Source: Nostoc punctiforme PCC 73102
GTDB taxonomy: Bacteria > Cyanobacteriota > Cyanobacteriia > Cyanobacteriales > Nostocaceae
DNA length: 32,000 nt
Assembly (NCBI RefSeq): GCF_000020025.1
Contig: NC_010628.1
Coordinates: forward strand, 1,140,001-1,172,000
Direction of reading: 5' to 3'
Shown: positions 11,838-14,473 of the stretch, one piece after another
Position numbering within the stretch: position 1 is the first letter of the stretch
How the letters are laid out: every line of letters begins with the position of its first letter
Program-made: the position numbers and the translations under genes
Notes under the pieces: generated by a model
Seen by the model: the letters and a program-made list of their open reading frames with translations, nothing else
Database searches by the model: none
Told to the model about the DNA's origin: nothing

Positions 11838-11860
11838 GTAAGAATTCTTAATTGATTTAG

Positions 11861-11885
11861 AAAGCCCGCATTGGCGGGCTTTTTA
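11861..11885 (+). terminator. Rho-independent terminator of typA
   Basis: agcccgc (11863-11869) pairs with gcgggct (11874-11880) across the loop attg, followed by tttt. Confidence 0.8.
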
Positions 11886-11959
11886 GTTGGTTCGCTACAA
11901 CATTTTTCAAATGTTAAACTACATTTAAAATCGCAAACATAGATTGAGTATATATTTCG

Positions 11960-13078
11960 ATGGATGACTTGCGTGATTCTCTTGACCGCATCAAATCTAT
12001 TTGTTCTGAAATCGTTGTACAATTTGAATCTTCTGATGTAGCTGAGTCACTAAAAGCATTGCAAAAAGCAGTTAACGAAGCAGCAAAATCTTGGTCTGGC
12101 TCATGGCTTGGATATCATTCCCGTGTCTATTACAACCAACTTCAACCAGTTCCACCCGGTGCACGATTTAGTCAAGAATGGGGGCTTTCAGATGGATTAT
12201 CTAACGAAACTAGGGGTGATTGGTGTGAATATGACTTCGATTCTATCTATAACATTCTAAAATCGAAGGCAATCAATTTTTCGTTAGAGCAACTAAACGA
12301 ACTTGCCAATTATGCAAATGAAGAGATTCCTGATTTACGAGAAGAATTAATATCGATAATTTTTTCTTGCTTGGCTAGTGGAGAAGACACATACCTAGAT
12401 CGGCTCAAACAAGAAGCTGAACTATGTAAAACATCCTCTGTAGGAGAGTTTGTTGATTATCTTCGAGGCGGTGGACAATTTTTTTCGCGTGACAGGGTTG
12501 CTGTACTGTCTGGCTCTCAAACCCCGCCACATATTTATCTTCAAGCACAGTTGTTGGCTGTTCAATCACCTTCCACAGTCGCAAAAAGTTTAAAGAAAAT
12601 AGCAAATCGGCTAGCATTACACTTAACCAATAAATCTCGTACTTATATGTATTCATCTCAGCCAGGTACACATGTCTTTATTGGACACGGACACTCACCG
12701 TTATGGAGGGATCTCAAAGACTTTATCAGTGAGCGATTAAAACTACCTTGGGATGAATTCAATCGGCTTCCAATTGCTGGAATCAATAATACTGTGCGCT
12801 TATCCCAGATGCTGGATAGTGCAGCGATCGCATTTTTGATAATGACTGGTGAAGATGAACAAAGTGATCTGAAGCTCCGTGCAAGAATGAATGTCATACA
12901 TGAAGCAGGTCTTTTTCAAGGACGCTTGGGTTTCAGACGCGCAATTCTCCTTTTAGAAGAAGGCTGTGAAAACTTTTCCAATGTTGATGGAATTGGTTAT
13001 ATTAACTTTCCACGCGGGAACATTAAAGCTTGTTTTGAGGATGTTCGTATGGTTCTTGAGCGTGAAGGCTTGGTGTGA
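11960..13078 (+). CDS. TIR-like (Cap12/PycTIR-type, PF10137-like) effector domain protein with an unassigned N-terminal domain of about 235 aa
   Basis: C-terminal region: HVFIGHGHSPLW...AAIAFLIMTGEDEQ...RARMNVIHEAGLFQGRLGFRRAILLLEEGCENFSNVDGIGYINF. This reproduces the motif order I know for the 'predicted nucleotide-binding protein containing TIR-like domain' family, including the conserved Glu. The N-terminal part (WSGSWLGYHSRVYY...) matches nothing I recognise. Confidence 0.8.
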   Translation: MDDLRDSLDRIKSICSEIVVQFESSDVAESLKALQKAVNEAAKSWSGSWLGYHSRVYYNQLQPVPPGARFSQEWGLSDGLSNETRGDWCEYDFDSIYNILKSKAINFSLEQLNELANYANEEIPDLREELISIIFSCLASGEDTYLDRLKQEAELCKTSSVGEFVDYLRGGGQFFSRDRVAVLSGSQTPPHIYLQAQLLAVQSPSTVAKSLKKIANRLALHLTNKSRTYMYSSQPGTHVFIGHGHSPLWRDLKDFISERLKLPWDEFNRLPIAGINNTVRLSQMLDSAAIAFLIMTGEDEQSDLKLRARMNVIHEAGLFQGRLGFRRAILLLEEGCENFSNVDGIGYINFPRGNIKACFEDVRMVLEREGLV

Positions 13079-13089
13079 ACGCGTGGGAA

Positions 13090-13181
13090 GCGATCGCCAT
13101 TACCGTACATTTAGTCAAATTTTTGAGTAAAAATTAAGAAGACTGAAAAAGGCAATTATCATGACTATTCGTGAAACTGCG
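13090..13181. repeat. Direct repeat copy 1: leader plus the first 7 codons of the DUF2281-like gene (MTIRETA, then TAG)
   Basis: gcgatcgcc...agtcaaatttttgagtaaaaattaagaagactgaaaaaggcaattatcatgactattcgtgaaactgcg is about 85 percent identical to 13839-13920. Confidence 0.8.
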
Positions 13182-13223
13182 TAGGCATAGCCCGTCATAG
13201 ACATCTCTGTTTCTTAAAACGTA

Positions 13224-13253
13224 TTGACAACGTAAATACACAATGTCTACTAT
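13224..13253 (+). promoter_or_regulatory. Possible promoter of brnTA (TTGACA - 18 nt - TACTAT), implying a nearly leaderless mRNA
   Basis: ttgaca at 13224-13229 and tactat at 13248-13253. The ATG is at 13261 with no Shine-Dalgarno sequence in between. Confidence 0.35.
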
Positions 13254-13260
13254 GTAAGGT

Positions 13261-13557
13261 ATGGATGTGTATTTCGTGCTTAATGGTGTCACTTTCGTTT
13301 GGAACGAAGAAAAAGCTTGGATAAATCCCAGCAATCATGATGGCGTGACATTTCAGCAAGCCACAGAGGCATTTTTCGATCCGTTTTTAGTAGTTGTTGA
13401 TGCAAGTCGCAATGATGAACAAAGAGATGCTGTTATTGGCTTAGACAGACGGTGGAATCTTCTGTATGTCGTCTACATTGAACGTGAAAACGACATAATT
13501 CGGATCATTTCAGCTCGTAAAGCAACACGCAAGGAGCGAGAATATTATGAAAGCTGA
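13261..13557 (+). CDS. brnT: BrnT-family (DUF497) type II toxin
   Basis: FVWNEEKAWINPSNHDGVTFQQATEAFFDPF...DEQRDAVIG...LLYVVYIERENDIIRIISARKATRKEREYY is the canonical BrnT pattern (FxWDxxKAxxNxxKHGVxFxEA ... IRIISAR). Confidence 0.88.
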   Translation: MDVYFVLNGVTFVWNEEKAWINPSNHDGVTFQQATEAFFDPFLVVVDASRNDEQRDAVIGLDRRWNLLYVVYIERENDIIRIISARKATRKEREYYES

Positions 13558-13831
13558 AGCACTGAAAAAGCGACTCGATAAAAATCGTCCAATGACTACA
13601 ATCACAATTCGTATTCCCGAAGATGTCATTGAAGATTTGAAAAGAATAGCGCCATTACTGGGATTTTCTGGCTATCAGCCGTTAATGCGTGCCTATATTG
13701 GACAAGGGCTAAGAGTTGATCTGGAACGACTAGAGGATGATACTATCTCAGCACTGATTGCTAGCTTGAAGCGTCATGGTGTTAGCGATGAGGTTATCCA
13801 TGAAGCCCTCAGTGAAGTTACTCAAAAATAG
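13547..13831 (+). CDS. brnA: BrnA-type antitoxin (RHH/CopG-like)
   Basis: It overlaps brnT by 11 nt. ITIRIPEDVIEDLKRIAPLLGFSGYQPLMRAYIGQGL is the typical BrnA core. Confidence 0.82.
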   Translation: MKAEALKKRLDKNRPMTTITIRIPEDVIEDLKRIAPLLGFSGYQPLMRAYIGQGLRVDLERLEDDTISALIASLKRHGVSDEVIHEALSEVTQK

Positions 13832-13838
13832 TTCAATT

Positions 13839-13920
13839 GCGATCGCCCGTAGTCAAATCTTTGAGTAACAATGAAGAGGACTGAAAAAGGATTATTCTCA
13901 TGACTATTCGTGAAACTGCG
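13839..13920. repeat. Direct repeat copy 2 (leader plus the first 7 codons of the DUF2281-like gene)
   Basis: See 13090-13181. Identity ends exactly after ...cgtgaaactgcg. Confidence 0.8.
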
Positions 13921-14181
13921 ATGCCTTCGGCGAGCTTCGCTAACGCAAAATTGCAGCAACTTTCCGAACCACTCCTGCAAGAAGTGACCGACTTCATTGA
14001 TTTTTTTATGCACAAACATCAAGTTAAAATTGCTGAGAGTCAGCCTGATGAAACGCTTGTGGGAAAATGGTCACAATGGTTTGAGGCTGTGGATTCCCTA
14101 TAGGTATCTCCACCTGAATCAGTCAGTAATTATCAGCAACTTCTACTCGACAAGTATCGACAACAAGGGCTAGAACCATAG
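13900..14181 (+). pseudogene. DUF2281-like small antitoxin-type gene interrupted by an in-frame TAG at 14101
   Basis: KLQQLSEPLLQEVTDFIDFFMHKH is the DUF2281 motif. After the TAG at 14101-14103 the same frame reads VSPPESVSNYQQLLLDKYRQQGLEP, then TAG (14179-14181). This looks like the natural C-terminus of related Nostoc proteins, from memory. The 67-aa N-terminal product may still be made. Confidence 0.55.
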
Positions 14182-14473
14182 CATAGATTTACAGTGCTAG
14201 GTGTAGCCGATATCTTAGCGAAATTGCCTACAACTGATGCGCTCAAACTCTATGTGCCTCTCTCTAGTGAACAGCAATTGGCTCTCAACATATCCAAAAC
14301 TGAGCCACTGAGTGGCAATGGCTAGCTACAGAGATTGATTAGTAAAAGCATTCAATATAAAAATAACCCAATGGTGATGGGGGGCATAATTACTGCCTGC
14401 GGAGGCAGAAATCCTGTCTTCATATACTTATAACGACGAGTTAAAGCCTCCCACATCACACGCAGCAGTAATG

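Follow-up and report, generated by a model that had tools for sequence, protein, structure and literature searches.

The stretch of DNA analyzed here (hereafter the window) comprises 32,000 nucleotides of Nostoc punctiforme PCC 73102 (contig NC_010628.1, positions 1,140,001 to 1,172,000 of the forward strand), and it carries a gene for a protein in which an N-terminal helical domain is joined to a C-terminal TIR domain of the PF10137 family. The predicted product is identical in sequence to ACC79706.1, WP_012407728.1, and UniProt B2IV30 of N. punctiforme, and its N-terminal start, MDDL/FRDSL, is kept among the cyanobacterial homologs. A preliminary description had placed the gene directly after the typA terminator and directly before toxin-antitoxin cassettes; this arrangement was found again, and the open reading frame (ORF) and every motif quoted there were recovered exactly (Table 1). 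On balance, we think that the gene probably encodes an autonomous one-protein sensor and NADase of the abortive-infection (anti-phage) type.

Table 1. Positions in the window of the TIR gene, its parts, and the adjacent features.
Feature	Position	Strand	Basis or remark
Coding sequence, 372-aa protein	11960..13078	+	ATG start; ORF call
N-terminal domain, residues 1-232, helical bundle plus small beta/loop element	11960..12655	+	AlphaFold2 model
PF10137 TIR domain, residues 239-369	12674..13066	+	Pfam, Foldseek, and PDB profile matches
W264-D-E-F267 codons (LPWDEFN), predicted BB-loop substrate-binding aromatics	12749..12760	+	SfSTING alignment
Codon GAA, Glu315, predicted catalytic glutamate (NVIHE315AG)	12902..12904	+	Alignment
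Single-gene mobile cassette	11924..13078	+	Only stretch common to copies at other Nostocales sites
typA intrinsic terminator hairpin, core AAAGCCCGC-ATTG-GCGGGCTTTTT at 11859-11884	11850..11892	+	Folding
Weak sigma-70-like promoter match TTTTCA-16-TAAAAT, in the gap between terminator and start codon	11904..11931	+	9/12 consensus matches
Direct repeat of ~70 nt, first copy, downstream of the cassette	13112..13181	+	
BrnT toxin	13261-13557	+	PF04365, E 4.2e-23
BrnA-like partner of BrnT	13547-13831	+	
DUF2281 gene	13900-14103		Downstream of the TIR ORF

The C-terminal TIR domain

A PF10137-type TIR domain with a conserved glutamate had been expected at about residues 238-365. Pfam assigned PF10137 (CAP12-PCTIR_TIR, STIR clan) to residues 239-350 (E 5.9e-19; 68.7 bits vs a gathering cut-off of 24.7), with the match spanning profile positions 2-117 of 119. 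The motifs of the domain are located at residues 239-245 (VFIGHGH), 291-299 (AFLIMTGED), 307-327 (RARMNVIHEAGLFQGRLGFRR), and 329-348 (ILLLEEGCENFSNVDGIGYI). In a full-length AlphaFold2 (AF2) model built from 46 homologs (mean predicted local distance difference test, pLDDT, 84), strands and helices alternate over residues 238-368, as in the TIR, flavodoxin-like alpha/beta fold. A Foldseek search with the full model returned the TIR-STING filaments 9lmq and 7un8 at the top, followed by TLR1/10, BtpA, PdTIR, and AbTir (probability 0.9-1.0 for all of these, TIR-STING included), and the family profile matched the same Cap12 chains, 9lmq and 7un8, among PDB sequences.

In the family-profile alignment, Glu315 pairs with E86 of ElSTING (9lmq), which is the catalytic residue of that protein and of which the substitution E86A was made as a catalytically dead control (PMC12421889). 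The BB-loop pair W34/F39 of ElSTING binds NAD+ (PMC12421889). The ElSTING alignment stops short of this loop; in the alignment with SfSTING, W264 coincides with the Trp of "IPWTDAF", while F267 lies one column off the SfSTING Phe. Residues D265, E266, F267, and N268 of LPWDEFN are invariant among the 46 homologs. By analogy with these enzymes, the C-terminal domain is a probable NAD+ glycohydrolase of the TIR-STING (Cap12)/PycTIR type.

The idea that the TIR domain lacks catalytic activity and acts as a scaffold or adaptor seems to us scarcely credible. In its favor, the AF2 confidence is low over the catalytic region (pLDDT 52-75 across residues 300-340), but Glu315 is invariant in 46/46 homologs from many phyla, the motif RxNVxHExGLFQG around it is invariant or nearly so, and no part of the protein is more conserved. 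Among 46 diverse members, mean pairwise identity is 78% (minimum 66%) in the TIR domain vs 40% in the N-terminal domain, and the effector is thus far more conserved than the sensor.

The N-terminal domain

When residues 1-235 were modeled alone with AF2, the confidence was high (pLDDT 91.6; predicted template modeling score, pTM, 0.84). The model consists of long helices, in agreement with the mostly helical region described previously, and of a small beta/loop element bearing the WSGSWLGYHSRVYY...PPGARF core; WSGSWLGYHSRVYYNQLQPVPPGARF was located at residues 45-70. A 43-residue helix (residues 190-232) joins the domain directly to the first TIR strand. Across the family, an aromatic/His core made up of G51, Y57, Y58, P65, G67, F70, G75, G86, W88, S132, D178, A181, P189, H191, and H221 is invariant.

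The statement that this region matches no known sensor held in every search made. None of 24 members gave a Pfam match below E 0.01, the model had no match among PDB folds (best E 0.64) or viral structure models (best E over the PDB and viral searches 0.27-0.64), and the best match of the profile among PDB sequences was to a short helical stretch (E 0.028). No similarity to STING, SAVED, CARF, or cNMP-binding folds was found by Pfam or by PDB fold and sequence searches. A HEPN reading (Rx4-6H) was considered and dropped, since the only possible motif, R217-x3-H221, is wrongly spaced and its Arg is not invariant. We propose that the N-terminal domain serves as a sensor/regulatory module of a kind not described before.

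This domain is reused with other effectors. In P0135, it is joined to a protein kinase (Pfam) which matches the defense kinase PD-T4-6 (E 2e-38), and in P0249, found on two independent contigs, to a PNP_UDP_1 domain which matches the CBASS "PN-superfamily" effector (E 9e-13). In P0121 and P0140, it is followed by a single strong transmembrane helix and a tail, while P0155, P0156, and P0177 have differing C-terminal regions without assignment. The N-terminal-domain-only proteins P0397, P0413, P0441, and P0034 were rejected as a separate architecture, because they are truncated or split copies of the full-length gene.

An N-terminal-domain-only profile collected 1,258 representatives at 50% identity, most of which have the canonical length of ~372 aa. 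It may be, and here we are tentative, though we take the idea nearly as seriously as its opposite, that the domain is a new and widespread infection- or ligand-sensing module which drives at least four kinds of effector (TIR NADase, transmembrane tail, PNP-type nucleosidase, and Ser/Thr kinase) in ~1,250 clusters at 50% identity from bacteria and archaea; these proteins would then make up a modular family of one-protein immune systems that is new, with the invariant aromatic/His pocket recognizing a conserved cue, possibly a small molecule without a linked producer enzyme. The invariance of the aromatic/His/Asp core across phyla suggests a conserved ligand, so that what is sensed could be a small molecule or a process of the host that is itself conserved, and not a particular phage protein.

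Distribution and mobility

The preliminary description had called the gene an orphan. This holds in that no partner gene accompanies it (see below), but not with respect to the family, which is large and extends across phyla: the same full-length two-domain architecture is present in >5,600 clusters at 90% identity and, among species-representative genomes, in at least 576 species, drawn from almost every bacterial phylum and from some archaea. Its carriers belong to the Cyanobacteria, Proteobacteria, Acidobacteriota, Verrucomicrobiota, Planctomycetota, Chloroflexota, Actinomycetota, Clostridia, and others, and include a Methanotrichaceae archaeon. Database annotation of the family is generic. 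The distribution is patchy as well as wide: only 1/5,426 complete genomes of E. coli and 5/72,556 plasmids carry the gene.

In the Nostocales, the gene occupies a variable slot. It is present at the same typA site in two Nostoc strains (L001 and L096), while three other cyanobacteria (L002, L003, and L004) carry it at different chromosomal sites. When the window was compared with these three loci by blastn, only positions 11930-13078, 11924-13076, and 11957-13078, respectively, matched (77-80% identity). Because DNA homology is limited to the gene and at most 36 nt upstream of it, the gene moves as a single-gene cassette. Of the off-site cyanobacterial copies, one adjoins an integrase fragment and another a DUF772 transposase, such remnants having been seen in Nostoc and Anabaena. 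In Nostocales genomes without the TIR gene, homology to the window stops at 11891-11910, just past the typA terminator, which is the end of the conserved typA flank; this hairpin folds at -20.7 kcal/mol (z -3.98), and 0/200 shuffles fold equally well.

In three sister strains that were checked, TypA is 96-98% identical to that of the window, and two of them share the upstream gene order partly or wholly. The slot of the Lobaria cyanobiont holds an IetA-like AAA ATPase and BrnT, and those of Nostoc UHCC 0926 and Trichormus variabilis hold unrelated genes for 275-aa and 251-aa proteins, and in addition PIN, DUF433, Phd, or DUF2281 modules. The slot after typA is a hypervariable hotspot in the Nostocales, rich in toxin-antitoxin genes, and in N. 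punctiforme it would be a hotspot of defense and toxin-antitoxin genes; the gene itself has no fixed syntenic position among cyanobacteria. When the slot (window 11891-14200) was compared with L088, L089, L090, and L096, the strain-specific cargo was seen to be followed by shuffled sets of small toxin-antitoxin-type genes (BrnT, DUF2281, PIN, DUF433/DUF5615, DUF29, and Uma2). In Anabaena minutissima FACHB-250 (L094, 4166-11665), the TIR gene lies beside a DUF772 transposase, with nadA (quinolinate synthase) ~2 kb upstream of it and a NADAR-domain gene ~3 kb downstream; this link to NAD metabolism may be a coincidence.

Outside the cyanobacteria, the gene was found on mobile elements. In E. coli O55:H7 DEC5E (L093, NZ_CP038383.1 2726324-2727430), the gene (product WP_001419848.1) directly adjoins hipBA and marks one end of a filamentous prophage integrated in the chromosome, which encodes a Zot-family protein, a pII/X replication protein, and a GspD-like secretin. 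On the conjugative IncF plasmid pKGB1a of K. variicola (L092, NZ_CP071736.1 23.8-30.0 kb), the homolog of the window gene (the K. variicola protein is WP_228298560.1) is inside a Tn3/IS66-bounded cluster with genes for a recombinase, a DUF4231 (SLATT) protein, two small TIR proteins, and a TPR protein; this cluster may be a multi-TIR defense island. Truncated or split copies were found in Nostoc sp. TCL240-02 (P0034 and P0274), in Synechocystis salina (P0397, L097), and in metagenomes (P0413 and P0441). Recurrent inactivation in several lineages is as expected for a costly, toxic accessory gene.

Microcystis phage vB_MaeS-yong1 (L091, MT855965.1 3406-3687) has a 79-aa ORF whose product is 54% identical to TIR residues 281-369. 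The fragment may have been captured, or it may conceivably act as a decoy interfering with TIR assembly; its annotation as a "CMP/hydroxymethyl hydrolase" was not taken as its function, since it is a fragment beside a DDE transposase.

Search for a partner gene

The preliminary description had noted no cyclase or sensor gene nearby, and this was borne out on a larger scale. Among the window ORFs checked by Pfam and PADLOC (~2.2-22.7 kb), no cyclase, CD-NTase, SAVED, STING, or CARF was found. Neighbors were then clustered at 80 loci (ORFs of at least 70 aa, five genes on either side, ~700 ORFs), and no neighbor family was conserved, the largest occurring in 4/80 loci. Likewise, Pfam and PADLOC summaries of the ±1 and ±2 neighbors gave no recurrent family, no Pfam family exceeding 4/150 at the ±1 positions or 2/139 at the ±2 positions, and no small ORF (25-120 aa) within 600 nt was conserved. 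The gene has no partner gene here or across the 80 loci. Its neighbors include scattered restriction-modification methylases, DpnI, ResIII, SIR2_2, PemK, HipA, integrases, and transposases among metabolic genes.

These results bear upon the view in which a diffusible nucleotide signal is produced elsewhere and the protein acts as its receptor-effector, with the N-terminal domain as a new second-messenger-binding domain. The signal might be made by an unlinked cyclase (CBASS, Pycsar, or Cas10 of type III CRISPR), be a housekeeping nucleotide or an alarmone, or be supplied by the phage, and the protein would then lack an infection sensor of its own. The set of TIR, transmembrane, and PNP nucleosidase effectors mirrors the receptor effector repertoire of CBASS and Pycsar, and an aromatic/His/Asp core which is invariant across phyla is what one would expect of a small-molecule pocket. 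We nevertheless consider this view rather unlikely: no cyclase is linked to the gene in the window or at the 80 loci, the N-terminal domain is unlike the STING, SAVED, CARF, and cNMP-binding folds, and the gene moves alone (on a filamentous prophage and plasmids) into hosts from E. coli to Methanotrichaceae. Such lone travel into very different hosts argues that the gene must work without a specific partner.

The surroundings of the gene also invite an explanation in which it has no anti-phage role, being instead a stress or starvation hydrolase of NAD+ (or of a nucleotide) for dormancy, or a selfish toxin that aids mobile elements. Toxin-antitoxin genes are nearby here and in other genomes, mobile elements carry the gene, one copy is between nadA and a NADAR-domain gene, and the neighborhoods are heterogeneous. 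We judge this explanation to be decidedly unlikely, because no antitoxin-like partner is conserved, and because patchy horizontal spread together with swaps to known defense-type domains is typical of immune genes.

Comparison with known systems

The closest characterized relatives are the TIR-STING proteins of CBASS (Cap12). In both, the TIR domain belongs to PF10137, TIR-STING (SfSTING 7un8 and ElSTING 9lmq) gave the best PDB matches in sequence and in structure, the catalytic Glu aligns (E315 with E86), and NAD+ hydrolysis which depends on oligomerization and leads to abortive infection is likely shared, by analogy. However, the TIR domain is N-terminal in TIR-STING and C-terminal in the Nostoc protein, which has neither a STING/SAVED domain nor a CD-NTase operon, and whose regulatory domain is an unrelated helical fold. 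The NCBIfam Cap12 equivalogs score the Nostoc protein at 32.6 and 23 bits vs a cut-off of 450. PycTIR of Pycsar likewise has a C-terminal TIR effector of PF10137, and the PADLOC model for it matches residues 279-360 only (model positions 195-269 of 288; E 3.5e-7), but no pyrimidine cyclase (PycC) adjoins the gene in the window or at related loci, and the N-terminal region is unrelated.

The best PADLOC matches were five models of PDC-S35, a single-gene candidate (E 2.1e-13 to 2.2e-7; at most residues 193-362), which also has a C-terminal TIR-like domain; as in a single-gene system, no conserved partner accompanies the Nostoc gene. One of these models also covers the helix before the TIR domain (residues 193-362). 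The models are 231-278 positions long and leave residues 1-190 unmatched, so the N-terminal domain is outside that candidate. CBASS TIR effectors and PycTIR gave weaker matches, and no PADLOC match extends beyond the C-terminal part. The system also differs from Thoeris ThsB, since no ThsA-type neighbor recurs and the Nostoc TIR domain is PF10137, not PF08937 or PF13676. Because the operon partners and sensor domains of CBASS, Pycsar, and Thoeris were tested for and not found, the gene is not a member of any of these systems.

Single-protein sensor-effectors such as PD-T4-6, which the kinase joined to the N-terminal domain in P0135 resembles, and the DUF4062 "Swarozyc" NADase follow the same one-polypeptide logic and are also sporadic and mobile, which is an analogy and not homology; the sensor domain of the Nostoc protein is a different one, and DUF4062 is a different TIR-like family.

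Thoeris also raises the question of whether the TIR domain could be a signal generator like ThsB and plant TIRs, producing a cyclic ADP-ribose-type or other nucleotide for an unlinked effector without depletion of NAD+. Many bacterial TIR domains do generate signals (bioRxiv 10.64898/2025.12.03.692087), and the catalytic Glu is common to both kinds of TIR. This seems to us very unlikely, given that the characterized members of PF10137 (TIR-STING and PycTIR) are NAD+-depleting effectors, that neither a ThsA-like nor any other effector gene is linked at the 80 loci, and that the rare relatives replace the TIR domain with terminal effectors (transmembrane tails, nucleosidase, and kinase).

Proposed mode of action

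We thus prefer the reading of the gene as an autonomous sensor and NADase, and its likely mode of action can be outlined from TIR-STING and related TIR NADases, on which NAD+ hydrolysis, oligomerization, a trigger, and phage protection are all modeled here. In the uninfected cell, the N-terminal domain would probably hold the TIR domains apart. An infection-linked trigger, perhaps a component of the phage or a small molecule induced by infection, would bind the aromatic/His core of the N-terminal domain and cause oligomerization, and the TIR domains would then stack head-to-tail. Composite active sites, with the BB-loop residues W264/F267 and Glu315, may be formed in such stacks, and NAD+ would be destroyed, so that the cell arrests or dies before phage progeny are released.

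The preliminary description had proposed a self-contained sensor with an NADase, and this proposal stands as a well-supported candidate at the level of sequence and prediction: the PF10137 domain is present, its Glu aligns with a catalytic one and is conserved, the N-terminal domain matches no known domain and recurs with other defense-type effectors, and the gene has no partner, moves as a one-gene cassette, and is found at varying or mobile sites.

Several points weigh against the sensor-NADase reading. The catalytic helix of the TIR domain is poorly modeled (pLDDT 52-62 at residues 301-330, and <50 at residues 321-324). The core of the N-terminal domain is invariant across phyla, which is more easily reconciled with a conserved ligand than with a phage protein that evolves fast. 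Defense-gene enrichment of the neighborhoods is only mild, many of the neighbors being housekeeping genes. The fusions of the N-terminal domain to alternative effectors are rare (~6 of the top 150 representatives) and all metagenomic, and the three that were looked up are singleton clusters; for these reasons we take the fusions as supporting, not decisive. In the literature, we found no study of the protein, its accessions, PDC-S35, or this architecture, and no experiments on family members.

If confirmed, the gene would be an immune system of a single gene, widely distributed from cyanobacteria to Enterobacterales and methanogenic archaea, whose sensor has a fold without a known match. Because the logic of TIR NADases and abortive infection is well known, it would be an extension of known biology and not a surprise; with the effector logic familiar, the valuable part is the sensor and its trigger, and what the N-terminal domain recognizes could reveal a new infection cue. 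Through the homologs in E. coli DEC5E, a convenient native system, and in Klebsiella, this can be put to a direct test with standard coliphage panels.

Other features of the window

The promoter match upstream of the gene is at consensus level only and is no evidence of function, since shuffled sequence is expected to give just as many such sites. Base composition gave no signal of foreign origin (GC 38-43%). Near the left edge, the window encodes a 13-repeat WD40 protein (8-1702) whose true start may fall outside the window, and at 2204-2521 there is a solitary ORF for a ParE-family toxin, with no adjoining antitoxin ORF of at least 90 aa in the ORF list.

The BrnT/BrnA-like pair (13261..13831) is neighboring hotspot cargo outside the TIR system, because it is not conserved beside the homologs. 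It is flanked by two copies of a direct repeat of ~70 nt (13112-13181 and 13850-13920; 86-90% identical), each of which contains the sequence just before the DUF2281 gene at 13900 together with that gene's first seven codons (MTIRETA). In the first copy, a stop codon follows MTIRETA, and this copy is a remnant of the 5' region and initial codons of a DUF2281 gene. The repeats suggest that the 5' end of a DUF2281 antitoxin-like gene was the site at which the BrnTA module inserted or was duplicated.

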